NCBI GenBank assembly: GCA_947259225.1
Contig: CAMYLK010000009.1
Location: 17,599-81,598, forward strand
Reading direction: 5' to 3'
DNA from: an uncultured Desulfobulbaceae bacterium
Lineage (GTDB): Bacteria > Desulfobacterota > Desulfobulbia > Desulfobulbales > Desulfobulbaceae
DNA length: 64,000 nt
The notes under the pieces are model-generated. The model was not told the origin of the DNA and made no database searches. It worked only from the letters and a program-made list of their open reading frames with translations. Shown here piece by piece: positions 9,630 through 51,725 of this stretch; positions within the stretch are counted from its first letter, which is position 1; each line of letters starts with the position of its first letter. The position numbers were made by a program, and so were the translations under genes.

Positions 9630-9835
9630 TCTATATCGAGGTTTAGAGGAAACAATATAGTTACATTCGTCTAAAAACATGCACTGTTGGGAGAAAACGC
9701 ATTTTTTCCTTTGACAAAGTATTTTGTTTTGTATTAAATCAAACAATATCGATGACAGGTTGTAAAAAAGGATTTACACCTGACCAGCCTTTGGTGCCTC
9801 GGTGGCAATACTCTTAAAAAGAACGGGAGGGAAGT

Positions 9836-10111
9836 ATGAACAAGAAGGAATTAGTTGAAGCTATGGCAGGTGCAGCGGATATTAGTAAAGCCGCAGCAGA
9901 AAAAGCACTGAACGGCATGCTGATGTCCGTTACAAAAGCCCTGTCCAAGGGTGACAAGGTAACACTTGTTGGTTTTGGTACCTTTTCTGTTGTGAAACGC
10001 GCCAAGCGTAAAGCCAAAAACCCGCGTACCGGCGAAATGATTAAAATTCCTGCCAAGAAAGTTGCAAAGTTCAAACCAGGTAGCAAGCTTGCCGATGCTG
10101 TAAAAAAATAA
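9836..10111 (+). CDS. hup: DNA-binding protein HU
   Basis: 91 aa. [37 protein letters not shown] arm motif. Confidence 0.95.
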
Positions 10112-10137
10112 TTTTTTACAGAAAGAATTTTTTAAAA

Positions 10138-10170
10138 CAGCTGGCAATTTTGCCGGCTGTTTTTTATTTT
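10138..10170 (+). terminator. Rho-independent terminator after hup
   Basis: CAGCTGGCA-ATTT-TGCCGGCTG stem (9 bp, one G-U) followed by TTTTTTATTTT. Confidence 0.8.
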
Positions 10171-10183
10171 GGAGTATCGAAGT

Positions 10184-10260
10184 CGGGAAGTGGCTCAGTC
10201 TGGTAGAGCACAGCGTTCGGGACGCTGGGGTCGGAGGTTCAAATCCTCTCTTCCCGACCA
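10184..10260 (+). tRNA. tRNA-Pro (anticodon CGG)
   Basis: Hand-folded 77-nt cloverleaf. Acceptor CGGGAAG/CTTCCCG, U8, D arm GCTC/GAGC, anticodon stem CAGCG/CGCTG with loop TTCGGGA (CGG, G37), T arm GGAGG-TTCAAAT-CCTCT, discriminator A, encoded CCA. Confidence 0.92.
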
Positions 10261-10581
10261 GTTTTCAACTCAAACCACCAGCACAGAAAAGACTCTACCA
10301 ATCACAGCACAGCATTTATTTCTTCTTTTTCTCGAAGAGCAGTTTCTCCCCATCGAAATTGACATTTCTCAGTCAAAATTCATATAATTTAAACAGGGTA
10401 TAACTTTTATTCCATAACGGTTTATATGAATGGATGAAATGATTTTTTTATTTGTTTCATCCTTTTATACAAGTACGTATCATGTATGGGGAAGTAAGGA
10501 TGGGTTAAGCAGCCGAAGCTTATTTTTGGGTCAGTCTAAATTGAAGATGTTTTGACAGTAAAACTTTTCAATGAGGTGGAT

Positions 10582-12000
10582 ATGAATTTATTTCTTCTCC
10601 AGAAAAATGATAAAGGTCCTGGTTCTGTTTTTGCCCGAATTTTTCAATTTGTATTTTGCGGTGCCTTTATTTCTTTAATTATGTCATGCAATGCTCCAGT
10701 TACATCAGGTACATCTGGTATGATGAATGGTGCACGGTCAACTGCCTCTTCCCCTGTAACTGCTCAGGGTGATTATCAGGCTTCGTCTACCTGTAAGAAC
10801 TGCCATGCTCATATCTTTGAACAGTTTCTTGAATCAATGCATGCAAATTCATATAAGAACCCGGTGTTCAATGCTGAATTTTACAAGATTCTGTTACCGC
10901 GCTTTGAAGATGGTGAAGACCTCTCAGGTGAAGTGAGGGCTTGTATAGCATGCCATTCACCTGTAACCTATAGCCAGAACAGTGGAAATATTTCTTCGGT
11001 TAAGGGTGTTGGGCGTGATTTGTCAGGTGTTGAATGTGATCTTTGCCATACAATAAGAGGGTATGATGGTTCAAAACCGGAAGGTGGAAATTATATATCA
11101 AGTCCCAGTGAACAGAAATTAGGACCCTTTCAATATGAGAGCAGTCATCACCGTGCCTACTCAGAATTGCAGACAAAAAGTGAAATTTGTGCAATATGCC
11201 ATAACAGAACTAACCGTTTCGGCCTTGAAATAATATCAACCTTCTCGGAATGGAAGAAGAGTCAGTACTCCAAAAGGGGCATCGAGTGCCAGAGCTGTCA
11301 TATGAATATACAGGGATTCCTTACAGCCGGACAACCTGTATATGAGTCCGGCGAAGCAGCGCAGGCAACCTTGATCAAACCCAAAAACAGATCCAAGATT
11401 TACACACATCGTTTTCCAGGAGCACATTCAGAGTCTCAGGTGAACGGAGCTATTCAGTTGGACATACAGGTCAATGAGCCTGCAGTTGAAGCCGGCAAAG
11501 AGATGATGATTTATGTGAATGTGGACAACTCCAGGTCAGGTCATAAACTTCCGACGGGGAGCGCTGAACTCCGGCTGCTGTACCTTGATCTTGTCGCGGA
11601 AGTCGCGGGGGAAACAATTCCTCTTGCGGCTAATTCACTTGATAAGGAAATGTTTGACGTTTCTGGTAAGGGAAAATTTGATTCAATTGTTCTGAAAAAT
11701 GATATACCCGAAGGCAGGCGAGTTTACCGTGCCATCTGTCTAGATAATGAAGGACAACAGACAGTTTTTTCATTTGATGCCAAGGAAATTTCCTTTGATA
11801 ACCGTTTGCAGGCAAGTGAAGTCAGGAAGGAATTCTTTACATTTCAGGTGCCGGATGATGTTGGTTCGGAATTTTATCTTGTCGCCACTTTAAATTATCT
11901 CCGCTATCCCAGCTCCTTTGCCTATGAACTGGGCGTTCCCAAGGCAAAGACCGTTGAATTGGCAAGTGTTCGAAAAAAAGTGGTGTTAAACAGGCACTAA
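10582..12000 (+). CDS. Membrane-anchored pentahaem c-type cytochrome with non-haem C-terminal domain
   Basis: Five CxxCH motifs (CKNCH, CIACH, CDLCH, CAICH, CQSCH) and an N-terminal hydrophobic anchor. ATG at 10582 is preceded by GAGGTG. The ORF-track start at 10552 is a TTG without an RBS. Confidence 0.8.
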   Translation: MNLFLLQKNDKGPGSVFARIFQFVFCGAFISLIMSCNAPVTSGTSGMMNGARSTASSPVTAQGDYQASSTCKNCHAHIFEQFLESMHANSYKNPVFNAEFYKILLPRFEDGEDLSGEVRACIACHSPVTYSQNSGNISSVKGVGRDLSGVECDLCHTIRGYDGSKPEGGNYISSPSEQKLGPFQYESSHHRAYSELQTKSEICAICHNRTNRFGLEIISTFSEWKKSQYSKRGIECQSCHMNIQGFLTAGQPVYESGEAAQATLIKPKNRSKIYTHRFPGAHSESQVNGAIQLDIQVNEPAVEAGKEMMIYVNVDNSRSGHKLPTGSAELRLLYLDLVAEVAGETIPLAANSLDKEMFDVSGKGKFDSIVLKNDIPEGRRVYRAICLDNEGQQTVFSFDAKEISFDNRLQASEVRKEFFTFQVPDDVGSEFYLVATLNYLRYPSSFAYELGVPKAKTVELASVRKKVVLNRH

Positions 12001-12354
12001 TAAGAGACGGCTGGTCCAGTGCCTGGCAAATTATATTTTCGTTATTTTATTAATTAGGGTCCCCTCTATAATTTAAGGACGAGCAGTCTGGTTTCAGTTG
12101 GTGCCCTTATTCGTTTGTCCTATGTTTATCTGACTTACCCGTCTTCCTGCCCTGATATTTTCTTCACACAGTATTTACTGGGCCATTAATTGTTGCGAAA
12201 CACATCCTGTTTTCTTGCACATGACTTTATTGGTGCGATCCATGTCAAACGGCCCAATTAATCTTTTGACCTGCAGTTAGTAATGATTACTCTTCTAGGA
12301 AAGGGCAACGGTAATATGTTTGTTTGCTATATACTTGGAGTGTGCTCGGGAGGT

Positions 12355-37353: not shown

Positions 37354-39471
37354 ATGCTGGATAAATTATTTTCACCAAGTACGGTTGCTGTTGTTGGTGC
37401 TTCCCGCAGTCCAGGGAAAGTGGGACACGATATTCTGGCCAATCTTGTCGCTGGCGGTTTTGCTGGAAAAATAATACCGGTAAATCCTTCCGGCGGTGAA
37501 ATGTTTGACCTGAAAGTATTTAAAAAGCTAGCAGACTACCGGGGAAAAATCGACCAGGTAATTATCGCGGTTCCCAGCAAATATGTGCTTGATCTTGCCA
37601 GAGATGCGATCTCGAAAAAAGCCTTTAGTATTATTGTCATATCTGCCGGTTTCAGGGAAACTGGAGAAACGGGCAGCCAACAGCAGGATGAGCTCGCCGA
37701 TATCTGTAAAAGAGGAGGAGCGAGGCTTCTCGGACCCAACTGTCTCGGCCTTATAAATACGGATGCAAATTTGAACAGTTCCTTTGCCGGACGAATGCCG
37801 CAGGCAGGATCAATTGCTGTTTTTTCGCAGTCAGGGGCATTATGCACTGCCATGCTTGATCTTGCTGAGAATCGTCATATCGGTCTTTCCAAACTCATAT
37901 CCATTGGCAACAAGGCAGACCTGTCCGAGGTTGATATGCTGATCGCTCTGGCCCGGGATGAGCAGACCCGTGTTATTGTCGGCTACCTGGAGGACATCAG
38001 TTCAGGCGACAACTTCATAAAGGCCGCAGAAGAGGCGAGTAACAGGAAACCGGTCATCATCCTCAAATCCGGCACTACAGTCGCAGGGCAGAAAGCGGCA
38101 GCCAGCCATACCGGGGTGCTGTCGGGTGCTGATACCGCCTATGGTGCTGCGTTTAAGCGCTCAGGGGTCTGCCGGGCCGACACCTTCGACGCTATGTTTG
38201 ATTACGCTACCGCTTTCAATCTGCAGCCCTTGCCCATGGGGAACCGGGTCCTGATCATCACTAACGCCGGCGGACCTGGAACTATGGCAGCTGATGCTGT
38301 GGAAAAATCCGGTCTGCAGGTTGCGGTTCTTGACCGAAATGCCTCGACAGCTCTTCGGGCCCAATTGCCGGTTGCGGCCAGTATTGCCAACCCGGTAGAT
38401 GTTCTCGGCGATGCAGGACCGGATAGGTATGTTGCCGCTCTCCAGGCTGCTCAAAAGGATCCTGCCGTTGATGCAGTCCTTATTATTCTGACTCCGCAAG
38501 CCATGACGCGGCCTGGTGAAACAGCCCGGGCCATTATCGACCATATGGACGGATCAAAACCGGTCCTTGCTTCATTTATGGGTGGAAAGGATGTCATGCC
38601 CGGCCGCAGGGAACTTGCTGCCGGTGGGTTGCCGGATTACGAGTCCCCTGAACGTGCGGTAGCGGTCCTGAAGGCCATGCACGAGTATAGCGTCTGGCGA
38701 AACCGTCCGCCGCGGATGGTTACCAGATTTCCGGTCAACCGCCGGCGGGTTGAGCGGATCATCAGCCGGCGACAGCGTACAGGAAGACTGCAGCTTGGTG
38801 AAGTCAGGGCCAAGAATATTCTTCGGGCATACGGGTTTCAAATTCTTGATGGCCGCCAGGCGACAAGCCCGGAAGAGGCAGTTGAAATTGCCCGCTTCGT
38901 TGGTTTTCCTGTGGCCATGAAAGTTGTTTCGCCAAATATTATCCACAAGACAGACCTGGGAGGAGTTCGCCTTGATGTCACTTCGAGCCAGGAAGTTGAC
39001 GATGCCTATGAACTTATGATGCTCCGCATCAGGAAACAGGCTCCTGAGGCAATCATTGAAGGTGTTTATGTTGAGAAAATGGCCGACCCGGGGCTGGAAG
39101 TCATCGTGGGTATGACGCGGGACCCGCAATTCGGGCCCATGCTTATGTTCGGCCTGGGAGGCATTTTTGTGGAGGTGTTGAAAGACGTAACGTTCCATCT
39201 TGCTCCCATTACTGAAGATGAGGCTGTTCAAATGCTGCAGTCAACGCGCTCGTACGAAATGCTGAAAGGCAAAAGGGGCCAGAAGGAAGTAGATATAGCT
39301 GCCATTGCGGCTGCATTGCAGCGTATCAGTCAGTTGACAACTGATTTTCCCCAGATCATTGAGCTTGATATCAACCCAATGATTGTCGGTGAGATGGGTA
39401 CGGAACCTGTTGTTGCTGATGCCCGCATGACATTGTCGGCTTTAATAAAACAGAACCATTCCCACAACTGA
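37354..39471 (+). CDS. ADP-forming acyl/acetyl-CoA synthetase family protein (fused alpha/beta, CoA-binding + ATP-grasp)
   Basis: 705 aa. VAVVGASRSPGKVG CoA-binding Rossmann, succinyl-CoA-synthetase-like flavodoxin domains, C-terminal ATP-grasp (GFPVAMKVVSP...HKTDLGGV). Confidence 0.85.
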   Translation: MLDKLFSPSTVAVVGASRSPGKVGHDILANLVAGGFAGKIIPVNPSGGEMFDLKVFKKLADYRGKIDQVIIAVPSKYVLDLARDAISKKAFSIIVISAGFRETGETGSQQQDELADICKRGGARLLGPNCLGLINTDANLNSSFAGRMPQAGSIAVFSQSGALCTAMLDLAENRHIGLSKLISIGNKADLSEVDMLIALARDEQTRVIVGYLEDISSGDNFIKAAEEASNRKPVIILKSGTTVAGQKAAASHTGVLSGADTAYGAAFKRSGVCRADTFDAMFDYATAFNLQPLPMGNRVLIITNAGGPGTMAADAVEKSGLQVAVLDRNASTALRAQLPVAASIANPVDVLGDAGPDRYVAALQAAQKDPAVDAVLIILTPQAMTRPGETARAIIDHMDGSKPVLASFMGGKDVMPGRRELAAGGLPDYESPERAVAVLKAMHEYSVWRNRPPRMVTRFPVNRRRVERIISRRQRTGRLQLGEVRAKNILRAYGFQILDGRQATSPEEAVEIARFVGFPVAMKVVSPNIIHKTDLGGVRLDVTSSQEVDDAYELMMLRIRKQAPEAIIEGVYVEKMADPGLEVIVGMTRDPQFGPMLMFGLGGIFVEVLKDVTFHLAPITEDEAVQMLQSTRSYEMLKGKRGQKEVDIAAIAAALQRISQLTTDFPQIIELDINPMIVGEMGTEPVVADARMTLSALIKQNHSHN

Positions 39472-39484
39472 AAGGACATGTATC

Positions 39485-41365
39485 ATGCAGTATGATGTTG
39501 ACTGGCAAAACCGATTTGCCGACATGGTCTCCACCCCTAAAAATGCTGTGGACAATGTTCGCCCGGGCAATAGAGTCTTTGTGGGTACCGGTTGCGGTGA
39601 ACCTGTGGATCTTGTGTCCGCTTTGACCTCCCGGGCCGGGGAACTGGCAGATGTCGAAATAATTCAGCTTTTCACAAAGGGAGACGCTCCTTACGCCGAA
39701 ATAAAGCTCTCTGATTGCTTTAAAGTCAACAGCTTTTTTGTCGGCAGCAATGTCAGGCAGATGATACAGGAAGGTTTGGGCGACTATACACCGATTCTGA
39801 TGTCTGATATTCCCCGCCAGTTCCATAGTGGACGCATTCCAATCGATGTTGCCCTTATACAGGTAACTCCTCCCGATTCAAGTGGAAAAGTCAGTCTCGG
39901 AATATCTGTTGATATCGTGAAGAGTGCAGCTGAAAACGCGTCTCTGGTCATAGCACAGGTGAATCCGCGGATGCCCTGGGTGCACGGTGACAGTGTGATA
40001 GATGTGTACGACCTTGATATACTGGTGCCGGTAGAATCGGAATTAATAGAAAGAAAATCGAGCCCTGTTCCTGAAATTAGTGAAAAAATTGGCAGCAATG
40101 TTGCCGGTCTCATACCTAACGGCTCCACAGTGGAGTTCGGTCTTGGGAGAATACGAGGAGTAGGACGGTTGCCCCAGGCTATGCAGAATTTCCTTTATGA
40201 CAAAAAGGACCTGGGGGTTCATACCGAAATGCTGACTGATGGGATCATCGACCTGATTGAATCCGGCGCTGTAACCGGTGCAAGAAAAACCATGGACAGG
40301 GGGAAGATTACAGCGAGTTTTTGCATGGGTACGAGGAGGTTGTACGATTATATTAATGACAATCCCCTGTTCAGTTTTCGACCGACTGAGTATGTAAACG
40401 ACTCAAATATAATTGGCAAACAGAAACGGATGGTATCCATCAATATGGCCCTGGAGATAGATCTGACCGGACAGGTGTGTTCCGACTCTGTGGCCGGAAA
40501 GTTCTACTCCGGCATCGGAGGGCAGGTTGATTTCAATCGAGGCGCGGCAAGATCGGAAGGAGGGCGGGCGATAATTGTGATGCCATCTGTAAATGCCAGT
40601 GGAAACAGGTCAAGGATTGTTTCAATCCTGCAGTCGGGTTCCGGAGTCGTTATCTCAAGAGGAACTGTTCATTTTGTTGTTACCGAGTATGGAGTTGCGT
40701 ATCTGCATGGTAAAGCGATACAGGAGCGAGTCATGGCCCTCATCTCCATCGCTCATCCAAACTACCGTGAAAAGCTTTTCCAGGAAGCTGTTGATGCAAG
40801 GTATATCAGCCCTGAACTGGCAGGTCTCGGTGACAGGTTTATGGTCCCCGGAGAGGAATCAATGCGATCCTCTTATCTGCTTGATAATGGAACCCAGGTC
40901 AGCTTCCGATCCATAAGACCGGTAGACGAGCCAAATATGCGTGACCTGCTGTATGATCTTTCTCAGGAGACCGTGTATTATAGGTTCATGAGCAGGCAGA
41001 AACGCTTTACCCACAGGCAGATCCATGACTTTGTCTATATCGATCACCGCAAAGACGTTGCGGTTGTTGCCACCGTTCCTGAGGCAAGTGGAGAGGAAAT
41101 AATAGCGGTTGGGCGTTATTTTCTTAATGAGAGGACCAACAAGGCTGAGGTTGCCTTTGTAATACGTGACGACTGGCAGAACATGGGGATTGGCAAGTTT
41201 TTGTTCAATCATCTGATCTCAATTGCCAGGCGCAACGGTATAGCAGGATTCACAGCGGAAGTCCTCCGGGATAACAAGCGGATGCAGAATATCTTCAACC
41301 ACTCGGGCTACAAGGTTAAAAGTGTTATCGAGGAAGGAGTGTACAGCTTTGTGATCGATTTCTGA
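39485..41365 (+). CDS. Acetyl-CoA hydrolase/transferase family domain fused to a C-terminal GNAT acetyltransferase
   Basis: 626 aa. N-terminal ~430 aa resemble 4-hydroxybutyrate/acetyl-CoA transferases (GIGGQVDF block). The C-terminal part has a GNAT motif A (WQNMGIGKFLFNHLISIARRNG). Confidence 0.8.
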   Translation: MQYDVDWQNRFADMVSTPKNAVDNVRPGNRVFVGTGCGEPVDLVSALTSRAGELADVEIIQLFTKGDAPYAEIKLSDCFKVNSFFVGSNVRQMIQEGLGDYTPILMSDIPRQFHSGRIPIDVALIQVTPPDSSGKVSLGISVDIVKSAAENASLVIAQVNPRMPWVHGDSVIDVYDLDILVPVESELIERKSSPVPEISEKIGSNVAGLIPNGSTVEFGLGRIRGVGRLPQAMQNFLYDKKDLGVHTEMLTDGIIDLIESGAVTGARKTMDRGKITASFCMGTRRLYDYINDNPLFSFRPTEYVNDSNIIGKQKRMVSINMALEIDLTGQVCSDSVAGKFYSGIGGQVDFNRGAARSEGGRAIIVMPSVNASGNRSRIVSILQSGSGVVISRGTVHFVVTEYGVAYLHGKAIQERVMALISIAHPNYREKLFQEAVDARYISPELAGLGDRFMVPGEESMRSSYLLDNGTQVSFRSIRPVDEPNMRDLLYDLSQETVYYRFMSRQKRFTHRQIHDFVYIDHRKDVAVVATVPEASGEEIIAVGRYFLNERTNKAEVAFVIRDDWQNMGIGKFLFNHLISIARRNGIAGFTAEVLRDNKRMQNIFNHSGYKVKSVIEEGVYSFVIDF

Positions 41366-41606: not shown

Positions 41607-42298
41607 TTATGTCCCATCAGGTCTGACGTCGAACATATTGGCTGGAACCAGAGGATCGGTAACCAAAGTAAGGGCGATTGTACTTTTCATCAGCTTGCCG
41701 TAACTGATAGCAAAGGTGTCGCCAATCCCGACCACACAAAGATCCATGGGAATATGAACAGTAAGGGTATCATCCGTATTGTTGATGATCCTGTAACTGA
41801 CCATTGGTTGAGGCGTGTCAGGAAAAACAACTAGTCCTGCAAAGGTGTCCGGCGTCCAGCGGGAACTAGATTTTGTAATAGTGGTTAGCGTAACCCCGGT
41901 GGAAGTTTCTTCGTAAAGATAACTTGCTGACCCGTATGTCTGGGCCTGTTTCTGGATGTGCGGATCGTGACAGAATCGTCATTCAACAGTCCAGCTGCCT
42001 TAATCATCATCGGTCTGCAGGCTGGAGAGGGGTTCTACTCTGAGGGCGTCAAGATCGTTGTAGCAGCTCCAGCAGAGGGAGTTGAACCGGTGTCGTCGAT
42101 GTGTGCCGGATCGTGAATTGTCCTGAGAGGAAGAAGCTTTGCTTCGGTACCATAGACGTAATGACAGGAATCACATTCGATGTTGTTCTGAAAAAAATGC
42201 GGATAACCGTCGGCACGTAGATCTTGGAATGGAACACTCAAAACAAAAACTGCGACCAGGATATTATAAATCCTCGACAGGAATTTTGCGAAAGGCAT
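41607..42298 (-). pseudogene. Decayed partial paralogue of the N-terminal ~230 codons of the giant cytochrome gene
   Basis: The 87-aa ORF (..ADGYPHFFQNNIECDSCHYVYGTE..) and the 65-aa ORF (MVSYRIINNTDDTLTVHIPMDL..FAISYGKL) match residues ~28-230 of 42618..47429. Reading across them needs a 1-nt frameshift (GGTTC versus GGTTTC). It also crosses in-frame TAA and TGA stops, and haem motif 2 has become CWSCY. Confidence 0.85.
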
Positions 42299-42559
42299 GG
42301 CCCTCCTCCTTCCTGACCTGTATTGTTCCCATACTTCCCTGCAAAGCTTTGAACGTTATTGGCTTTGAGAATGCAGTAACAGATATTGCCTTTTGACAAG
42401 GCAGCCCCCAAAAGATAAAGAATCGAAATTCATTTATTCAAAATATATTGCTACTAATATGATTTAAATGTCAAAAAAAACTTAAATACGAGATGATAAA
42501 GTTTTCTCTCGGCAAGAGGAGGGGAAGAATCGGCTTCTATACTATACCGTCGATATTTA

Positions 42560-42593
42560 AAGAAAAAGGGGTGGTCAGGAAGACCACCCCTTT
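42560..42593 (-). terminator. Rho-independent terminator of the giant cytochrome gene
   Basis: On the minus strand, GGGGTGGTC-TTCCT-GACCACCCC is followed by TTTTTCTTT, ~25 nt after the stop. Confidence 0.85.
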
Positions 42594-42617: not shown

Positions 42618-45600
42618 TCAGGGTATTTGAAAGTTGGAACTGAATGGTGAGGTGTTATTGGATGGGTCAAGGCGTATGGATGTCACCCACTGTCCAATAG
42701 CAACACCGGAACCGCTGACATCAACATCCACAGAACTCCCGGATGCAGTGGTAGAACCGATAAAGATCTTGCCCTCACCGTACGCAGTTCCTGTTCCGTC
42801 GTAATCAGAGATATACACTTCAACAGTATCTCCAGAAACCACATTGTCAACTGTAATCCATGAGGTGTCGGCTGCTGTAATGGTCGGCCGGATAATACTA
42901 TTGTTTGCAGTGCCATCCAGGTAGATACCGTCGTCACTCAGTGCACCTTCAGTCCCATTATTATAGAAGGAATTACGAATTATCCTGACTTCATTAGCTC
43001 CATCTGCCACATAGACACCATTGGCGGTCATATTGGCAAACACATTACCGGCCCCATCGGGATCATCATCTGTAGAGCCTCCAACCAGAGTATAGGACCC
43101 CCTGAATCCAGTGAGATAGACCCCGTATTTTCCAGGAAAAATCTCATCCAGTTCCGGATTGGTGCCGAAGAAATTGCCATATATCTTGGTAGGGCTGGCA
43201 TTATTATGGTAAACACTGATTGCCGAACCTTGGTTTCCAGTGCCGCTTGCTTTAACACTAAAGACATTGCTGTCATTCAATGTGTTGTCATCGGTCGCCA
43301 CATTTGGCCCACCGATGGTGATGTTGCCGGCCGAGGTACTGTTGATCCGGATGGCCCAGTAGTTCTGCTGGACCCTGTCATGCCATGTTGTTCCGTCAAA
43401 ATAATAACCGAATATGTTACCAGTGATGGAAAGTGGACCGGTGGTGCTGCCCACATAGATGCCTGTACCATTACCGGATATAATATTATCCTTGATAACA
43501 CCATTGGAGCCGGAAAGGCCGATTCCGTCATAACTGAAACCATTGCTCATGGCTGCCCCATCAGGCAACAGCCCGATATAGTTGTTCTGGATAGTCACAT
43601 TGGATGAACTTGGAACGTACATCCCGTCTCGGATGTTTCCGCTGATATAATTCCTGTCAAAAACATCCTCATCACCGCCAGCCCGGCAGTTGGCACCATT
43701 GACTTTTACACCGTAGTAATTCGAACCGCCTGTTTTGGTGTAGCCCGAGTTGCTGTCCGACCAGAAGCCGACATGGTTACCTTCAAGGACACAGTTATTG
43801 GCACTACTCATATCGATGCCGTAAAAGTAAAAGTTTGTGACCTGCAGTCCCCTGACCGTAACATTGTCACCAGTAACATTAAGGCCGTCAAAGCCATAGG
43901 TGCCGTGAATACGGATTTCCGGTCCTTTTGGATTGGTATCTCCATGCAACGCAGCCTGGGAGCCGCCGTCAATGGTGACCCCGTCAGCTGCTACGGTCGG
44001 CAGAATAGTGGCCACGTTGATCAATGCTACCCCGTTGGTCAGTGACCCTGGAGCAATATCGAACCAGATCGAATCATCACCGCCAGCTATTTCCAGGTCA
44101 GTGATAGCCTGTCGCAGAGAACCTCCACCGGAATCGTTCGTATTGGTCACGATATAGGCAGCAGGCGGTTTGATCAGAAAATCCGCATCCGAGCTGTCCG
44201 AAGTCTGGTTGCCTGCCTTATCCGTCACAGTCAGTTGCACACGGGTCCTGTAGCTGGCTGGTTTGGGGATCGGGTTCCAATCGTAGCTGCCGTCGTTGGC
44301 CTCGTTCGCTGCAATAGAACCAGGAAAAGTAGAACCGGAGTCAACCGAGTAATCCAGCATTATTGGACTGGCCTTCAGGTTGCCTTCAGTGTCGGAAATA
44401 TCACCGTTGGCCCAGGTGATCTGCCTGGTGGTGTCACCTTCCTGCCAGACCTCAGCACCGTTCGGTGAAAGGAGGTCATCCGCTGCAACATTGGGCGCAC
44501 CACGGTCCAGCTCAATTGTATAATTTATGGTGCCTGATTCACCAGCCTCGTTTCTCACCTTTATGTAGACAGTTTTTTCTGCATCGCTGTCGGACAGTGT
44601 ATACGTTGTGGAATCATTGTAGGGTATCCAGCCGGTGCTGTTCTGGCTGAATCCGGAGTCCTCGGCCAGGATCATTTCGTCCGGATAAGCTTGTGCTGTG
44701 ATGGCAACGTCAACAGTCCGATTATTTGTGAATCCTGTCTCTGCTGCAGCAGGGTCGGCGCTGTTGTCAGTCAACGTAAAGTCCCATAGGGACGGGGTAA
44801 ATGCCTGGATAGTAAAATCAGCGTTTGATTCATCAGAATTCTGATTCCCGGCCCGGTCTGTAGCCGTGATCTTAACTCGCACGGTGCTGCTTACAATCAA
44901 GGGTACCGATACCCAGGTGTAAGTCCCATCGTTGCCTTCACTGGAGGAAATGCTGAAGGGATAGCTGGTTCCGCTGTCGGTCGAGTAAACCAGATTTATG
45001 GGGAAGGGGCTCTTCAGATTGGTATCACTGATACCGCTCCAGGTGATGAAGCGGGTGGTGCCCTGGTTCCATATTTCGGAGCCGTTAGGTGAGGTAAGCG
45101 CAGAGGTGCCGACTGTGGGGATGGTTGTGTCAAGGGTGATGGTATCATTGCGCGGCAGGGATTCACCAAGAGCGTTGCGTGTCTTGCAAAAGATAGTATA
45201 GGAACCGTCAGTACCCGATATTGGGTAGGTAAAAGAAGAGGCATAGGGCCCCCAGCCATCACCACCGTTGTCAGGCTGAAGGTTTATGGAAAAAGCACCG
45301 TCCTGGGCACAGATCATCTCTGTTGGATCGGCATACCCGTCTAATGTAACGGTGATATTATTATTATTGGTGTAATTGGTTTCTGCAGGTAACGGATCGC
45401 TGCTGTTGTTGTCCTCTATTGCAATACTGGCCAGGCCAGGCGGGGCAATATAGTAATACTTACCCCCGCCGCCACCACCGTGACAATTTAAACAATTAAA
45501 GGCACTGTCCGGGCCATCGGCACCGTAATCACCAGAAGCATCATTACTATGGACAATATCTAGGCTAGTCCGGGTCATTTTTATAGTTGGCCCCCCACTT

Positions 45601-47429
45601 ATCCGAGAAGCACCATGAACATTATGACAGGTAATACACGTCGTTTCGGAATCATAACTATCAATACCATCAGAGTTCCAGGTATTGGTAAAGCCTATGT
45701 TGTGTATATCAACAAGATGGTCCCAGTGAGCATTTGCAGGAGGGGCCCCATAGCCATCTTCGCTCAAGTTACGAAACCCTGTCGAGATAGTCCCCGCATT
45801 TTTGTAGGGGTTGGTCGAGCAATTATATAACCCGCTTGCCTTCGTATCACTCAGCAGGTTATTTTCGCTGTGACATTCAAAACAAAGCCTGTAATCATTG
45901 CTGTCGTAGCCGCATTGGTCGCCTGTTTTGGGTATAGCCATGGGGGGCTGCCCGCCAACTGATTTAAGACGAAATGCTGCCTGATAATTATTGGAGGCTG
46001 CAGCATACGACCTGGCGTTATCAAAATTATGGTCCAAGGTGACCCCGTGACATTCACCACATTCTTTAGCTGCACCGGCTCGGCCGTGACCGGATGCATA
46101 GTAACCCCAGGTGGAATTGTTTCCTGCCACATCAGGTGCCTGGCGACCATTAATTACCGAATTGCCCGAGTCATGACAGGTGACACACCATTTCTCTTTT
46201 CCTGCAGTGAGTGATATGCCGGTATAGACACCGTTAACCCAGTTGCTCTTGGCGCCGACAACAGCATCATCAACGCCGTCAAAGCCCCCTCCGGGGCTGT
46301 GACAGTCATTACAGATGTCTGTCTGGGCCAGGGTAAGTTCAGCGTTCGGGTCAGCCTTGGACCGAAAAAACGGGAAGTTGGTTGTGTTATGACAGTCTTC
46401 ACAGTCAAGAATCGGACGGGGGCCTATAAGTTCATCGTCGCTTTCCGTGTGAATGGAATGCGTCTCATAAGTCCCTGCTCCTCCTGTCAATCCACCGTAT
46501 CCGGCATCATGACCATGACATTCACCGCATCCTGTTCCAGAGCCTCCTCCATGGGCAAAGCCACCTTTGTGGCTGTGGCAGTCAATACAGTCCGTTTCTG
46601 ATGCTCCTCCCACGTTTGTATGGTATTGGTCACCGCCTGACCCGTCATTCCTGAAATGCGTTGTCTCAGTATGACAAACCTCACAAATACCATCATAAGT
46701 CGTGTCACCATCGACAAAAGAGTTCGTACCGGTACTGCTGAATAACTTGACGGTCATGATGTCAGTTTTGTCCTGGGGAACGAGCGGATCTGTGATAGCA
46801 GCAAGATCAATGGAACTCTTGACCAGCTTACCGTAACTGATGGCAAAGGTATCACCAGCACCAACGATCCCAAGATCCATGGGTATATGCACAGTCAATG
46901 TATCTGTAGTGTTGCTTGTAATCCTGTAGCTGACCATTGGCTGGGATGTGTCCGGGAAAACAACCAGCCCAGCAAACTCATCCGGTGTCCAGCCAGCGCC
47001 ACTTTTGGAGATCGTGGTCAGGGTGACGCCGGTAGATACATTCTCGTAGAGATAGCTCGCGGAAGCGAATGTCTGGGCCTGCTCATGAAAATGCGGATCA
47101 TGGCAGACTATGCATTCAACCGTCCAGCTGCCGTAGTCGTCATCAATCTGGGAACTGGAATGGGTCATAACCTGGACGGCATCGAGGCCGTTATGACAAC
47201 TCCAGCAGAGTGAATTGAACTGGGTATCGTCGTCAACCGGATCACGATGAGTCCATGGTGGCAGAAGTTGTGGTTCGGTACCATAAACGTAATGACACGA
47301 ATCACATTCGATGTTGTTCTGAAAAAAATGGGGATAGCCATCAGCAATGGCCGAAGTTGTAAAAAGACAAAAAATAATTACTGCTGCAGGGATTGACATA
47401 AACCCCGCAACTGGTTGTGCGGCCCTCAT
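42618..47429 (-). CDS. Secreted 13-haem c-type cytochrome fused to tandem Ig-like modules and a C-terminal parallel beta-helix region
   Basis: 1603 aa, GGAGGAG RBS, signal peptide. 13 CxxCH motifs, all within aa ~40-660. Gly-rich inter-haem loops (CIDCHSHKGGFAHGGGSGTGCGECHG). Two ~210-aa repeated modules, then PbH1-type repeats (NNYIGL..., DNIISGNGTGIYV..., GNIFGYY...). Confidence 0.85.
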   Translation of the reverse strand: MRAAQPVAGFMSIPAAVIIFCLFTTSAIADGYPHFFQNNIECDSCHYVYGTEPQLLPPWTHRDPVDDDTQFNSLCWSCHNGLDAVQVMTHSSSQIDDDYGSWTVECIVCHDPHFHEQAQTFASASYLYENVSTGVTLTTISKSGAGWTPDEFAGLVVFPDTSQPMVSYRITSNTTDTLTVHIPMDLGIVGAGDTFAISYGKLVKSSIDLAAITDPLVPQDKTDIMTVKLFSSTGTNSFVDGDTTYDGICEVCHTETTHFRNDGSGGDQYHTNVGGASETDCIDCHSHKGGFAHGGGSGTGCGECHGHDAGYGGLTGGAGTYETHSIHTESDDELIGPRPILDCEDCHNTTNFPFFRSKADPNAELTLAQTDICNDCHSPGGGFDGVDDAVVGAKSNWVNGVYTGISLTAGKEKWCVTCHDSGNSVINGRQAPDVAGNNSTWGYYASGHGRAGAAKECGECHGVTLDHNFDNARSYAAASNNYQAAFRLKSVGGQPPMAIPKTGDQCGYDSNDYRLCFECHSENNLLSDTKASGLYNCSTNPYKNAGTISTGFRNLSEDGYGAPPANAHWDHLVDIHNIGFTNTWNSDGIDSYDSETTCITCHNVHGASRISGGPTIKMTRTSLDIVHSNDASGDYGADGPDSAFNCLNCHGGGGGGKYYYIAPPGLASIAIEDNNSSDPLPAETNYTNNNNITVTLDGYADPTEMICAQDGAFSINLQPDNGGDGWGPYASSFTYPISGTDGSYTIFCKTRNALGESLPRNDTITLDTTIPTVGTSALTSPNGSEIWNQGTTRFITWSGISDTNLKSPFPINLVYSTDSGTSYPFSISSSEGNDGTYTWVSVPLIVSSTVRVKITATDRAGNQNSDESNADFTIQAFTPSLWDFTLTDNSADPAAAETGFTNNRTVDVAITAQAYPDEMILAEDSGFSQNSTGWIPYNDSTTYTLSDSDAEKTVYIKVRNEAGESGTINYTIELDRGAPNVAADDLLSPNGAEVWQEGDTTRQITWANGDISDTEGNLKASPIMLDYSVDSGSTFPGSIAANEANDGSYDWNPIPKPASYRTRVQLTVTDKAGNQTSDSSDADFLIKPPAAYIVTNTNDSGGGSLRQAITDLEIAGGDDSIWFDIAPGSLTNGVALINVATILPTVAADGVTIDGGSQAALHGDTNPKGPEIRIHGTYGFDGLNVTGDNVTVRGLQVTNFYFYGIDMSSANNCVLEGNHVGFWSDSNSGYTKTGGSNYYGVKVNGANCRAGGDEDVFDRNYISGNIRDGMYVPSSSNVTIQNNYIGLLPDGAAMSNGFSYDGIGLSGSNGVIKDNIISGNGTGIYVGSTTGPLSITGNIFGYYFDGTTWHDRVQQNYWAIRINSTSAGNITIGGPNVATDDNTLNDSNVFSVKASGTGNQGSAISVYHNNASPTKIYGNFFGTNPELDEIFPGKYGVYLTGFRGSYTLVGGSTDDDPDGAGNVFANMTANGVYVADGANEVRIIRNSFYNNGTEGALSDDGIYLDGTANNSIIRPTITAADTSWITVDNVVSGDTVEVYISDYDGTGTAYGEGKIFIGSTTASGSSVDVDVSGSGVAIGQWVTSIRLDPSNNTSPFSSNFQIP
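44165..45440 (-). repeat. Tandem in-frame duplication of a ~210-aa two-domain module inside the giant cytochrome gene
   Basis: Module A has LTSPNGSEIWNQGTTRFITW...DRAGNQNSDESNADFTI. Module B has LLSPNGAEVWQEGDTTRQITW...DKAGNQTSDSSDADFLI. The boundary lies near 44790. Confidence 0.75.
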
Positions 47430-47571
47430 TGTTCTCCTCCGATCAAAACTGTTCCGCTCTCATACACCCTGAAGAGGTCAAGGAAAGTAATAGCTTAGAG
47501 AGAGCAGCAACAGGTTTTTGCCTTCTGTAAAGGCAGTCCCTCAAACACGTATGATACTTTATTCATCATTA

Positions 47572-47601
47572 ATGTTACATCTATGCAACTTGTGAAGTCA
47601 A
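47572..47601 (-). promoter_or_regulatory. Putative sigma-70 promoter of the giant cytochrome gene
   Basis: Minus strand TTGACT-18 nt-TAACAT, ~140 nt upstream of the ATG. Pattern match only. Confidence 0.35.
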
Positions 47602-47746: not shown

Positions 47747-49060
47747 TTATTCTTCTATTTCACATTCTTTTCCTTCGCATTCAACATCAGCGACCAGAAA
47801 CGAAGCCTTATATCCGTCTTTCTTCAGTTGCTTGTAGGCCATTTCAGCCCTGGCACCAGTAGAACAGTGGATATAGATTTCTTTGTCTTGGGGGAGCTCA
47901 CTTACTCTTTTCGGCAGTTCATCCAGAGGAATGGTAACGGCTGCGGGATACTTTCCTGCTGCAATTTCATCGTTTGTCCGGACATCAAGAATGACAGCTT
48001 TTGATGACCCGGCTGCCGCTTTTTCAAAATCAGCAGCACTAACTTCGCCCTTGCCAAGTTTTCTTTTCCAGTTAATTTCGGTCACAACCGGCCCTGACTC
48101 AAAATTGCCGTCTGATTTCAGCCAGCGATTGAGATCTCCATAAACCAGTGATGCTTTTTTAAAACCTTCCTTGCGGAGTTTTTCGAGAGCCTTGAGCGCC
48201 TGTTTTTCATCGTCGCTGTATAGGACGACTGGAGCTTTTGTCGGGATATCTTCGAGCTTGTCACCCAGAGTATCATAAGGGATTGTAACTGATCTTGGGA
48301 TACGGGATTTTTCCGATTTTTCAACTGATCGCAGGTCAATAAGAACAATATTTCCCTTGCTGACAAAACCAGTGGATGCATAAGTCGGGTTCCCGTCTTT
48401 GATCCAGGCAGGTTCTCCCGCAAGCATGACCTTTACGTTTTTGTATCCTGCTTTTTTCGCCAGACCGGCGGATTTCGGGCTCATGCCTCAGGTGTAGCCC
48501 CCGCAGTAAAATACCAACAACTTGTCCTTGTCAGCAGGTAGGAGTTCAGGTAACTTGGTTTTCATCTGCTCGACAGTGATGGATATCGCTCCGGGAAGAT
48601 GAGATTGAGCGTAGCGCTTTGTCGGTCGGGAGTCGATGATCACCATTGCGGCGTTCTTGTCAATAAGCTTTTTTACCTCTTTCGGCTTGATTTCAACAAT
48701 ACCCTCAGGCAGTTTGGCAAGCTTGGGTTTAACAACGGTTGCAACTTTATCACTGCCCCGCATTTCCCATGTAATTATTGTTGCCTCTCCTTTTCGGGCA
48801 TGATCCATTCCCTTGGTCTTGCCGTCAAACTTGACCATCATGGTTTTGGCTTTATCACCCTTGCCAACCTCAATTGAAATGGTTTTTGCTTTTTTTGATT
48901 TGCCGACAATTTTACCTTTGTAAACGTTAGCAGCCTGCTTTTCTGCAGCAGGATTCATAGCCGTGTCAGGGGGAGCTGTTTTGTTCTGCGCGCATCCCCA
49001 TGTTAACACCGTTAACATGATGCATAACGGTATAAACTTTGTCAATTTTTGCCTCATCAT
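47747..49060 (-). CDS. Triple-rhodanese lipoprotein with predicted selenocysteine in the first active-site loop
   Basis: The 190-aa and 245-aa track ORFs share one frame and are separated only by TGA (48490-48488). Joined reading: ..LLVFYCGGYT-U-GMSPKSAGLAKKAGY... U-GMSPKS aligns with the rhodanese C-xxxx-[RK]-S loop. Lipobox LTWGC. Domain 2 is inactive (LYSDDE). Domain 3 has IHCSTGARAE. Confidence 0.7.
48458..48470 (-). promoter_or_regulatory. SECIS-like hairpin downstream of the in-frame UGA
   Basis: mRNA CGCC-GGUCU-GGCG. The GGUCU apical loop starts 25 nt from the U of UGA. The E. coli fdhF SECIS carries GCA-GGUCU-GCA with the loop one codon closer. Confidence 0.45.
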
Positions 49061-49432
49061 TTTACCTCCGAAAAATTAAGTTTTTCTTTCCCCCTCATAA
49101 CTATCTATAAAAACAAAAAAACAGTTTGATATGATATGCCCTCAATGTGGCATTACGGTACAATGTTTCCATTTGGAATTATTGAAAATATTTTTTAAAA
49201 AAAACTCAAAATACAAAAAAAATACAAATAATAACAATTAATTATACGTTTCATATTACACTTTTGTTATTTGCGAAGTCAAGGTGATTTGCCGTTATAA
49301 AAAGAAAATTTCAGTGAGGGGCGAGTCTCACCTTTTATTCCTGTTCATTCGGTATGTTATCTGATAGAATTTATAGTATCGCTAAAGCAACAGCAGTTGC
49401 ACATTCTTTTCTTTTATTTAAGGAGGTATGTT

Positions 49433-49651
49433 ATGGCAGGGAGCGTTTACAAGCTTATCGAACTCGTAGGAACCAGCAAGAAATCCTGGGAGGATGCAGC
49501 CAAGAATGCTGTTGAAACAGCAGGAAAGTCATTAAAAGACCTGCGGATTGCCGAAGTAACAAAGCTTGATATGCAGATAAATAAGGGAAAAGTGGTAGCC
49601 TATCGCGCCCGGATCAGTGTTTCGTTTAAGTATTTAATGAAAAAGAAATAG
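49433..49651 (+). CDS. Dodecin-family flavin-binding protein
   Basis: 72 aa. MAGSVYKLIELVGTSKKSWEDAAKNAVETAGKSLKDLRIAEV. AGGAGG RBS 6 nt upstream of ATG 49433. Confidence 0.8.
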   Translation: MAGSVYKLIELVGTSKKSWEDAAKNAVETAGKSLKDLRIAEVTKLDMQINKGKVVAYRARISVSFKYLMKKK

Positions 49652-49701
49652 AGGTACAACGAACACTAGTCTAAGACAATTTTCTAAACTTAATTGAATC
49701 T

Positions 49702-49731
49702 AAAAACCGGCTTGTTGGGCCGGTTTTTTTT
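49702..49731. terminator. Bidirectional rho-independent terminator between convergent genes
   Basis: AAAAA-AACCGGC-TTGTTGG-GCCGGTT-TTTTTT, with an A-run on one side and a T-run on the other. Confidence 0.75.
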
Positions 49732-49760
49732 ATGTTGATTAACTGGAGAACAAGGAAGGG

Positions 49761-50882
49761 CTAATGTTCAAGGGCCTGGAATTTTTTCATGAATTTGCGG
49801 TCTATATAATCCTTTAACAGGAATGCCGGTCTCCCGCCGAAGAGAAAACATTTTTTACGAAAAATTCCGGTTCCGTCTCCAAGGTTGAATATGAGCAGGT
49901 AGTCACCCCCGGGCTTGAATTCCATGAGTTCTGTTCCGTCCAGAGAGGCCATTATGTTATGGAGGATGATCGGATTTTCGCGTACAGCATACACGCCCAC
50001 CTTATCAAGAGGTTTTTCTTTAAAGTGGATACAGTCACCTCCACCGAATATATTCGGGTAATCAGTGCTCTGGAGGTATTTGTTGACCATAAGCCCTCCA
50101 TCAGGCCCAACAGCAAGTCCTGACTCTTTGAAAACAGGGGAGGGCTGAACCCCAACAGCTACAAAGATGATGTCTGCTGGAAATGTCTGGCAGGATTCCA
50201 GCTCAATGATACCGTGTTGGATAGTTGAAACATTGCTCTGCTCGAGAATTTCGATGTTGCGGCTGACAAGGGATTGAATAGCCCTGGCACGGACCCGCTG
50301 CGGAAAGCCAGCCATAATGGTGGATCGGGAAAATATCTTGATGTCAGCAGGATGAATATTTGACTTGTTGGTCAACCCCCATACATTACCTGCAATTTCC
50401 ACTGCTGACGGCCCGCCACCTATAACACAGACTTTCACAACGTTATCAGCAGACAGTTGCAGGATTTTTTTCCTGGCTTCCGCCAGACGTTCTATGGGCT
50501 TAACAGGAAAAATGTTTTCAGAGTTGTCTGTAATTATTGATTCCGGAACATAGCTCCCGATGTTGAAAGAGATCGTATCGTAAGGGACTGTTTCCCCAGA
50601 TTCAAGATGTATGATGCAGGCATCAGGGTCAACCTTCACAACTTTGCCCAGGATGAAAGTGCCGCCATGCTTGTCGACAACGTGCCGGGTCGAAAAGCGT
50701 ATCTCTTCCGGGGAGTACATATTGCCGAGCATTCCCGGGCCCATACCAGAATAATAGTGGTATGGTGAAGGCTGGATAACAGTGACCTGATACCCTTTTT
50801 CAACAAACTCATTAAGGTGGGCCAGGGCCATCATGTGAGCATGCCCCCCGCCTGCGAGCACGAGCTGCTTTGTCATATCCAC
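49761..50882 (-). CDS. FAD-dependent pyridine nucleotide-disulfide oxidoreductase (type found N-terminally fused to SelD; TIGR03169-like)
   Basis: 373 aa. LVLAGGGHAH dinucleotide motif, YYSGMGPGML block, second Rossmann VIGGGPSAVE, GGGDC near the C-terminus. Confidence 0.65.
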   Translation of the reverse strand: MDMTKQLVLAGGGHAHMMALAHLNEFVEKGYQVTVIQPSPYHYYSGMGPGMLGNMYSPEEIRFSTRHVVDKHGGTFILGKVVKVDPDACIIHLESGETVPYDTISFNIGSYVPESIITDNSENIFPVKPIERLAEARKKILQLSADNVVKVCVIGGGPSAVEIAGNVWGLTNKSNIHPADIKIFSRSTIMAGFPQRVRARAIQSLVSRNIEILEQSNVSTIQHGIIELESCQTFPADIIFVAVGVQPSPVFKESGLAVGPDGGLMVNKYLQSTDYPNIFGGGDCIHFKEKPLDKVGVYAVRENPIILHNIMASLDGTELMEFKPGGDYLLIFNLGDGTGIFRKKCFLFGGRPAFLLKDYIDRKFMKKFQALEH

Positions 50883-50894
50883 CTCTGATGTGGT

Positions 50895-51725
50895 TTACAG
50901 GTGCTGGAAAAGTTCACCCAGCTGTTTCAGGTGAGACTGTTCCTCCCGGGCTATCTGGTCAAGTACCTCGCGGCTCTCTTTGTTGGAGTTGTTTTCCGCA
51001 GCCCTGCTGTAGAGGTCAAAGGCCTGGGCTTCTATTGACATGGCCATGCCGATGACGTCCTCTTCTGAGTTTACATCAGCACCGAATTTTTGAATAAATT
51101 CTTCTGTGTTGATTCCACCCTCCATCACTGGTGAGACTATATCCCTGTCAAATTTTTCAACATCAAGGTCGTCTCCGGTTATTCTTTTATATTCTTCAAA
51201 GAGCCGGTTCTGGTGAAGTATCTCTATGGCAAAGAGCTGGTGAAAAAGTTCCTGTGACTTGGCATTGTGTATTCTGGGAATCATCTTTTTGTAAAATTCA
51301 CGCAGCCCCTTTTCCAGTGAATAAGCGACGATGAGCACTTCTTTCGGAGTTTCATTGCCGTCAAACAGATCAAGGCCCTGATCTTCAGGGCCGACAGCAT
51401 AATTACCTGTCCAAGCCTTTAATCCGCCGCTGAGGTTATAGACTCTGCTAAAATTTTTTCCGGCCAGCATTTGGGCCGCAACTCTGCTTCGTCCACCAAT
51501 AGCGCAGTATACTAACGCAGGTTTTTCCGGATCAATTTCAGATAACCGATCCTTGAGTTCAGGGAGAGGGATAAGTTTGGAACCGGGGATATGCCCGGCC
51601 TCGTATTCCTTGGGCTGTCGTACATCAAGCAGGGTGTATGAATCCGGTACGTTTTCATCAATGAATTTTTTTGCCTGAACGGCGTCCATTGATTCAACAG
51701 GTGTGAAAAATTGTTTCCAGCGCAT
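50895..51725 (-). CDS. Rhodanese domain fused to a rubrerythrin/ferritin-like diiron four-helix-bundle domain
   Basis: 276 aa. Rhodanese active loop VYCAIGGRSRVAA. The C-terminal half carries the E / ExxH / E / ExxH ligand pattern (SLEKG, IEILH, SIEAQ, EEQSH). Confidence 0.7.
   Translation of the reverse strand: MRWKQFFTPVESMDAVQAKKFIDENVPDSYTLLDVRQPKEYEAGHIPGSKLIPLPELKDRLSEIDPEKPALVYCAIGGRSRVAAQMLAGKNFSRVYNLSGGLKAWTGNYAVGPEDQGLDLFDGNETPKEVLIVAYSLEKGLREFYKKMIPRIHNAKSQELFHQLFAIEILHQNRLFEEYKRITGDDLDVEKFDRDIVSPVMEGGINTEEFIQKFGADVNSEEDVIGMAMSIEAQAFDLYSRAAENNSNKESREVLDQIAREEQSHLKQLGELFQHL

Follow-up and report, generated by a model that had tools for sequence, protein, structure and literature searches.

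The stretch of DNA analysed here (the window) comprises 64,000 nucleotides of contig CAMYLK010000009.1 from an uncultured Desulfobulbaceae bacterium, a host with an outer membrane. One of its genes encodes a giant multihaem cytochrome in which the haem region is joined to immunoglobulin (Ig)-like domains and a right-handed parallel beta-helix, and this architecture raises the question of where such a protein works and what its long haem-free part is for. An initial annotation had suggested a cell-surface electron-transfer protein that attaches to a matrix, a mineral or a partner cell. Our analysis showed an intact gene, 13 conserved haem sites, Ig and beta-helix folds, and a haem module that stays constant among relatives while the C-termini vary. 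We read the protein, with a probability of roughly 60%, as a secreted, unanchored extracellular electron-transfer protein with the haem module as its conducting part and the C-terminus as its targeting or tethering part.

The cytochrome gene is complete and occupies positions 42618..47429 of the minus strand, the strand from which all parts of the protein described below are read, as a single unbroken open reading frame (ORF) of 1603 amino acids (aa). The public database holds an identical protein, P0001, of 1593 aa, which is 10 residues shorter and fits a start at M11. We favour M1 as the start because of the position of the Shine-Dalgarno sequence GGAGGAG (47434..47440, minus strand), 4 nt 5' of the ATG at 47429, and because a paralogue-like protein, P0009, begins with the equivalent MRAV.... 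Residues 1–29 (47343..47429), MRAAQPVAGFMSIPAAVIIFCLFTTSAIA, were read by eye as a Sec-type signal peptide; the predicted cleavage AIA/DG, before DG, likewise comes from reading the sequence. The only Cys of the signal peptide lies in IIFC and no lipobox was found in the cytochrome, so a lipoprotein anchor was ruled out; no second hydrophobic stretch occurs anywhere in the protein. The mature chain has a calculated length of 1574 aa, a pI of 4.3 and a mass of 166.6 kDa haem-free or ~174.6 kDa with 13 haems. Of the seven cysteines outside the CxxCH motifs, one belongs to the signal peptide and the other six are arranged as three pairs within domains.

An intrinsic-terminator-like hairpin with a 12-bp stem, including 7 G-C pairs, and a T-rich tail (42565..42593, minus strand) begins 25 nt past the stop codon. 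Another hairpin stands 3' of the upstream rhodanese gene, before the cytochrome gene, and these flanking hairpins together with the 317-bp gap between the two genes indicate that the cytochrome gene is monocistronic. The gap contains a promoter-like site, TTGACT, an 18-nt spacer and TAACAT (47572..47601, minus strand), recognised by consensus match only; such matches are no commoner in the region than in shuffled sequence.

A script search revealed exactly 13 CxxCH motifs, at residues 42, 75, 106, 249, 281, 301, 343, 373, 415, 457, 516, 598 and 646, and no additional CX3-4CH motifs in the cytochrome sequence. From the Cys and His content of the protein itself, ~0.02 CxxCH would be expected by chance. 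The motifs are identical to those listed in the initial annotation, which had counted them by eye; all lie before residue 650, and the end assigned there to the haem region, CLNCHGGGGGGKYYY, matches the ORF translation. The haem module spans residues 30–659. Its first part (residues 30–120, 47070..47342) contains the motifs CDSCH, CWSCH and CIVCH for haems 1–3, which are kept in 56–61 of 61 aligned relatives. A haem-free gap of 138 residues then separates motifs 3 and 4, in agreement with the non-haem insert described before; the insert itself (residues 121–245, 46695..47069) forms a small beta-barrel of ~125 aa in the AlphaFold2 model, with a predicted local distance difference test (pLDDT) score >90 over residues ~125–230 and of 92–98 over ~125–210. 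It has no Pfam match, and a Foldseek search with the model of the haem module matched the insert alone, weakly (E >= 0.01), to small beta-barrels; the haem part gave no significant match.

Haems 4–13 (residues 246–659, 45453..46694) form the most conserved core. Pfam recognised Cytochrome_C7 (52.9 bits; cut-off 24.8) and Cytochrom_c3_2 (35.4 bits; cut-off 25) in the cytochrome. All 13 haem sites are kept across the 61-sequence alignment as CxxCH, as CX3-4CH or, at site 6, as longer-spaced variants. Fifteen His residues outside the motifs and Met-618 are conserved at >=66% in the same relatives, and their number suffices for the distal ligands of 13, mostly bis-His, haems. Outside the insert the density is ~1 haem per 38 residues; such close spacing is what a haem wire would show.

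The remaining part of the chain was modelled by AlphaFold2 with high confidence (mean pLDDT 92.4 over residues 660–1603) as four Ig-like beta-sandwiches followed by a cap helix, the long right-handed beta-helix and, at the end, a further beta-sandwich, so that the order proposed in the initial annotation, from haem array through spacers to beta-helix, is correct. Spacer module A (residues 660–875, 44805..45452) contains two Ig-like beta-sandwich domains (pLDDT ~90), and spacer module B (residues 876–1092, 44154..44804) is its tandem duplicate with two more; the modules are 47% identical (E 2e-57). The two ~210-aa modules noted earlier are thus ~215-aa duplicates of Ig-like fold, and the resemblance to Kre9 noted for them corresponds to a sub-threshold match (Kre9_KNH, PF10342; 16.9 bits against a cut-off of 24.6, E 0.011, residues 771–875). 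Module A also gives a weak Big_13 match, and non-cytochrome relatives of the Ig modules bear PF10342. One of the cysteine pairs, Cys-707/Cys-748, is either present or absent as a unit in 10 of 10 aligned homologues, and this covariation suggests a disulfide. With the C-terminal model, Foldseek ranked highest extracellular tandem arrays of Ig/FN3 domains and extenders of large bacterial adhesins or "grappling hook" proteins. Because Ig arrays dominated the ranking, it offers no functional clue on the beta-helix.

The beta-helix (residues 1093–1505, 42915..44153) starts with the N-terminal cap motif NTNDSGGGSLRQAI and is modelled as coils of short strands, with pLDDT mostly >90. Pfam Beta_helix (PF13229; cut-off 25.9 bits) scored 44.8 bits on the whole protein and 46.2 bits when the segment was scanned separately. 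The claim of a C-terminal beta-helix therefore stands; the length given for it does not, since the helix covers ~415 aa instead of ~500 and a beta-sandwich of ~98 aa (residues 1506–1603, 42621..42914), evident from the AlphaFold2 model and the alignment, had not been separated from it. Read by eye in the alignment, the conserved residues of the helix are mostly Gly, Asn-ladder and hydrophobic residues, with no acidic catalytic cluster. The final beta-sandwich has no Pfam match, and the C-terminal family profile found nothing significant in the PDB. The chain ends in a conserved ...TSPFSSNFQIP. In P0002 and P0007 this motif lies within the chain, and the C-terminus has no Pfam or NCBIfam match; a C-terminal sorting signal was thereby ruled out.

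Comparison with homologues disclosed that the whole architecture recurs. P0004 (1603 aa), P0005, P0006 and P0002 are co-linear with the cytochrome over 99–100% of its length at 44–47% identity, with unchanged domain order; a frameshift or assembly artefact joining separate genes, against which the initial annotation had cautioned, was not found. The contig that carries P0001 in the public database is 121 kb long. Genome scans located co-linear genes in Sedimenticola sp., other Gammaproteobacteria, Polarisedimenticolaceae (Acidobacteriota), Desulfarculales and Desulfuromonadales, and P0010 from Planctomycetota is co-linear with an incomplete C-terminus. Overall, the full-length co-linear homologues are 44–50% identical and come from four phyla. 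Identity near 50% over such a range points to horizontal transfer.

To describe the family beyond these cases, we used the haem module in an exhaustive HMMER scan of 1.84 billion representative proteins (clusters at 50% identity). It returned 1180 relatives at E<=1e-3, 826 at E<=1e-10 and 452 at E<=1e-30, ranging from ~330 to ~4200 aa. The hosts include sulfate reducers, sulfur and iron oxidisers, Nitrospirota, Planctomycetota and Acidobacteriota. What these proteins have in common is the N-terminal haem module, and the C-termini vary. Among the best 120 relatives, counted by hand from precomputed Pfam lists, Beta_helix occurs in ~33, Laminin_G_3 in ~22, Big_5 and GEVED in ~13 each and F5/8-type-C (discoidin) in 3; several relatives bear the MtrC-MtrF_II-IV domain (PF22113). 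The core of haems 4–13 also occurs alone, in ~790-aa decahaem proteins from metagenome-assembled genomes (MAGs) of Sideroxydans and Thiodiazotropha, where it is followed by a haem-free C-terminus of ~400 aa; the genes (loci L067, L075 and L076, at about 9800–12200 in each) stand isolated among housekeeping genes.

Genes of the family are often arrayed in tandem. At 21 of 74 related loci at least two large cytochrome genes stand in tandem. P0009, a protein of 890 aa with the haem module, one Ig module and no beta-helix, is nearly identical to the window cytochrome over the first ~120 residues and 64% identical over the whole haem module, and it may be a paralogue from the same or a sister genome. 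Directly downstream of the cytochrome gene, tblastn revealed a decayed tandem copy of residues ~2–224 (41625..42307, minus strand; 72% identity over 155 aa and 58% over 73 aa, E 6e-81). It carries one frameshift and two in-frame stops, its haem motifs 2 and 3 are destroyed, and it breaks off before haem 4. Tandem copies accompanied by a decayed copy are a pattern typical of diversifying surface proteins, and the decayed copy shows that the tandem-paralogue dynamics known from other family loci have left their mark here as well.

A family member is also encoded (locus L025) by the Desulfobulbaceae MAG B4-01. This MAG contains 43 multihaem cytochromes, and its authors propose that the organism is an Fe(III)-reducing partner of ANME-2a, a group of anaerobic methanotrophic archaea (ANME); the paper does not describe the haem/Ig/beta-helix architecture (PMC10052568). 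Full-text searches found no paper on a bacterial multihaem cytochrome fused to a beta-helix, and targeted searches within individual papers on cytochrome diversity, cytochrome fusions or extracellular electron-transfer pathways yielded nothing relevant on this architecture. A single-sequence search of the PDB with the cytochrome returned 0 matches. The haem-module family has no structure, name or experiment; it is large, phylogenetically broad and unstudied. The initial annotation was therefore right that the architecture has no characterised homologue, a periplasmic enzyme included, in the PDB or literature searches; it overstated the uniqueness of the protein, which belongs to a large modular family and has an archaeal precedent.

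That precedent, the closest published one, is MHC-C of ANME archaea, in which a multihaem cytochrome and a large pectin-lyase-like domain share one polypeptide (Chadwick et al. 2022, PMC9012536), and the concept of joining a cytochrome to a beta-helix is accordingly already in print. For the beta-helix the authors propose a role in carbohydrate attachment or in recognising the cell wall of a partner (PMC9012536). Like MHC-C, the window cytochrome combines a multihaem region and a right-handed beta-helix in one chain with neither an S-layer domain nor a transmembrane anchor. In contrast to the archaeal protein, in which the beta-helix is N-terminal and no Ig-like spacers are described, the bacterial one has a C-terminal beta-helix and Ig-like spacers. 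The named relatives include no archaeal protein, and the comparison with MHC-C is one of descriptions only.

Resemblance to the characterised bacterial systems is partial. Like MtrC, OmcA and MtrF of Shewanella, the cytochrome is of an extracellular type that mixes haem domains with beta-barrel and beta-sandwich domains, its location here being a prediction. Unlike them, it is no lipoprotein, it has 13 haems instead of 10 and a haem-free tail of ~940 residues, it gave no match to PF22113 at E<=1, and no mtrAB-like genes for a porin and a periplasmic cytochrome are adjacent. The best PDB match of the family profile is a weak one over ~130 residues, to chain 6r2q_A (E 4e-5). We take 6R2Q to be the MtrCAB complex of Shewanella baltica and its chain A to be MtrA; the table label of this chain, "Cystathionine beta-synthase", is ill-suited to 333 residues rich in CxxCH and looks wrong. 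With MtrA/DmsE-type proteins the cytochrome shares motifs of the form ...C-x-x-C-H-N-P/V-H-G... and a high haem density, whereas it is ~5 times larger, has haem-free domains and lacks a porin neighbour.

Among unanchored extracellular cytochromes, OmcZ of Geobacter is held in an exopolysaccharide matrix and PgcA reportedly carries its "hemes on a string" with Pro-Thr repeat linkers. The window cytochrome resembles both in concept, in that haems are positioned by haem-free parts or by matrix binding; no sequence relationship was found, Ig domains take the place of the Pro-Thr linkers of PgcA, and neither PgcA nor OmcZ has a beta-helix. With NosD it shares a right-handed beta-helix of the PbH1 type; the NosD model scores about its threshold. 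In the window protein, unlike NosD, this helix shares its chain with a cytochrome and with Ig domains, and it has no NosFY partner.

How, then, would the protein work? The cytochrome would be exported by Sec as a c-type protein with 13 haems and would function outside the cytoplasm, most probably beyond the outer membrane, which it would presumably cross by type II secretion. An extracytoplasmic and probably extracellular location is suggested by the surface-type domains on relatives, the Cys-707/Cys-748 pair, the pI of 4.3 and the lack of a membrane anchor. The non-haem modules are indeed of types known from surface proteins, as the initial annotation had supposed, since Pfam domains of the sorting or anchoring type, which we take to be type IX secretion system (T9SS) sorting, SLH and FlgD-Ig domains of surface or secreted proteins, occur on non-cytochrome proteins related to the Ig and beta-helix parts. 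The N-terminal ~630 residues with their mostly bis-His haems would be the constant conducting part. An Ig domain measures ~4 nm, and the four of them could act as a rigid or semi-flexible spacer of an estimated 15–20 nm. The beta-helix and beta-sandwich would then tether the protein to, or target it onto, a polymer, which could be surface glycan or matrix of the producing cell itself or could belong to a surface that is mineral-associated or that of a partner. A redox carrier tethered to a matrix or surface could pass electrons to and from neighbouring cytochromes, external acceptors or donors, and an outer-membrane conduit whose genes lie elsewhere. Since neither a lipid nor a transmembrane anchor is present, this tethered carrier is the physically most coherent version of the proposal. 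The attachment to matrix, mineral or partner cell, the ligand of the beta-helix, and the direction and partners of electron flow are inferred.

Several observations weigh against this proposal. Expression, haem loading and location of the cytochrome are predictions from the gene. The haem module, modelled haem-free, reached moderate confidence (pLDDT 69.9), as is expected when haems are missing, and the model does not establish a continuous haem chain. In the structural model, four Ig domains part the haem module from the tip of the beta-helix, so a mechanism of binding a mineral and reducing it would be geometrically awkward. Neither a porin-cytochrome conduit nor type II secretion genes nor another partner are encoded within the 64-kb window, and the clustered ORFs of 78 related loci revealed no conserved neighbour except more cytochromes of the same family. 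Finally, the beta-helix matched the Pfam model of NosD, a periplasmic family, at about threshold level: the whole protein scored 23.4 bits (cut-off 23.6), the segment taken alone 31.1 bits.

This last observation is the starting point for an alternative that we consider unlikely, namely a periplasmic redox protein or enzyme whose NosD-like beta-helix binds a metal, a sulfur species or a polymer that the haems reduce or oxidise, possibly in connection with the upstream rhodanese and disulfide-reductase genes. The weak profile match to 6r2q_A, presumably the periplasmic-facing decahaem MtrA, would fit such a protein, as would the missing anchor, the lack of a recognised outer-membrane sorting signal, and the three rhodanese-domain genes and the Pyr_redox_2 gene immediately upstream on the same strand. 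Matches to the NosD model are, however, generic to PbH1 repeats, the profile does not match the solved NosD structure significantly (E 0.11), and no nos genes (nosZ, nosF, nosY or nosL) are among the window ORFs scanned. The link to sulfur metabolism is countered by the hairpin and the 317-bp gap that precede the cytochrome gene and by a neighbourhood that is unconserved in the 78 related loci. Free exchange of the C-terminus for lectin-like or Ig-like domains suits targeting better than a fixed active site, an acidic catalytic cluster is missing from the conserved residues of the beta-helix, and the extracellular sorting and anchoring domains on relatives of the Ig and beta-helix parts also speak against the periplasm. 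Were the protein periplasmic after all, a PbH1 domain would be paired in it with an unusual redox partner.

A slightly more doubtful possibility is an adhesin that mainly attaches its cell to another cell, such as a syntrophic partner, or to a mineral, the haems providing only local contact for direct interspecies electron transfer. Ig extenders with a beta-helix tip do resemble large bacterial adhesins, the pectin-lyase-like domain of MHC-C is proposed to recognise partner cell walls (PMC9012536), and a relative is encoded in the Desulfobulbaceae MAG from ANME-2a enrichments. This explanation overlaps with that of a tethered electron carrier and differs from it in emphasis only. A protein with no cell anchor of its own cannot bridge two surfaces unless its haem end docks on the producing cell, and the family also occurs in the sulfur and iron oxidisers Sideroxydans, Thiodiazotropha and Sedimenticola, for which we know of no syntrophic partnership of that kind. 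It is very improbable that the cytochrome is the subunit of a polymerising nanowire comparable to OmcS, OmcE or OmcZ. Many closely spaced haems, a secreted, unanchored build and the absence of a porin partner would suit a filament, but neither single-sequence nor profile searches of the PDB matched any of these filament subunits, the single-sequence search matching no solved chain at all; the ~940 residues of bulky haem-free domains that each subunit would carry set it apart from known filament subunits, and no result here supports polymerisation. The idea of an inactive gene or artefact, either a decaying gene or an assembly chimera, is hardly credible: the adjoining decayed fragment does testify to gene turnover at the locus, but nothing interrupts the 4.8-kb reading frame, none of the 13 haem motifs or conserved ligands is lost, there are homologues co-linear over the full length and an identical protein, P0001, is in the public database.

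Returning to the secreted electron carrier, the variable C-termini permit a wider, tentative proposal, which we regard as possible and still well short of probable. The family could be a toolkit of "addressable" extracellular cytochromes, in which one 13-haem wire module is recombined with targeting modules of lectin, Ig or beta-helix type that can stand in for one another. It is equally tentative that such recombination would proceed through tandem duplication, decay and horizontal transfer, and that the C-terminus would set the polymer, mineral or partner cell to which the haems are wired. If this were true, the family would represent a molecular specificity code for extracellular and interspecies electron transfer over at least five phyla. 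A constant wire with a variable address would explain how haems are placed in a matrix or on partners without an adjacent porin-cytochrome operon, its C-terminal modules could predict what an organism is wired to, and the haem module would be a candidate part for targeted bioelectronic interfaces. Giant fusion cytochromes are common in metagenomes, and another one is little surprise to specialists. Extracellular electron transfer is understood mainly through a few proteins of Shewanella and Geobacter, and the present family brings at least ~450 sequence clusters (50% identity) of unstudied proteins to bear on it.

The genes around the cytochrome are housekeeping and sulfur-transfer genes, and the absence of an adjacent porin or periplasmic cytochrome gene, noted in the initial annotation, holds. 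Directly upstream lies a double-rhodanese gene (47747–48484), preceded by a rhodanese gene (48488–49060), a Pyr_redox_2 disulfide oxidoreductase gene (49761–50882) and a gene for a rhodanese-rubrerythrin fusion (50895–51725), all on the minus strand. This run of sulfur-transfer-type genes spans 47747–51725 (minus strand), and the arrangement is not conserved beside homologues elsewhere. An operon of these rhodanese and disulfide-reductase genes with the cytochrome gene was ruled out by the hairpin, the 317-bp gap and the non-conserved neighbourhood. On the other side, genes for an ADP-forming acyl-CoA synthetase-like protein (705 aa; CoA-binding, succinyl-CoA-ligase-like and ATP-grasp domains) and then an acetyl-CoA hydrolase/transferase-GNAT fusion (626 aa) occupy 37354–41365 of the plus strand, and both of these CoA-metabolism genes converge on the cytochrome locus. 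The other neighbours are housekeeping genes, including a helicase. The isoleucyl-tRNA synthetase (IleRS) encoded in the window shares 80% identity with the enzyme of Desulfobulbaceae MAGs and 71–74% with that of Desulfobulbus species, which fits a Desulfobulbaceae host. Cytochrome c maturation genes nearby were considered and ruled out, as a CcmH-like TPR match belongs to a TPR protein among the housekeeping genes.

Two minor coding features involve haem motifs. The decayed copy keeps its Shine-Dalgarno sequence, signal peptide and haem motif 1 in an ORF of 87 aa (42035–42298), from which a small monohaem peptide could in principle be made. The only other multihaem ORF of the window (10552–12000, plus strand), ~30 kb from the giant cytochrome and beside a tRNA (10184–10257), encodes a pentahaem c554-like protein of 482 aa with weak similarity to the MtrC/MtrF domain.

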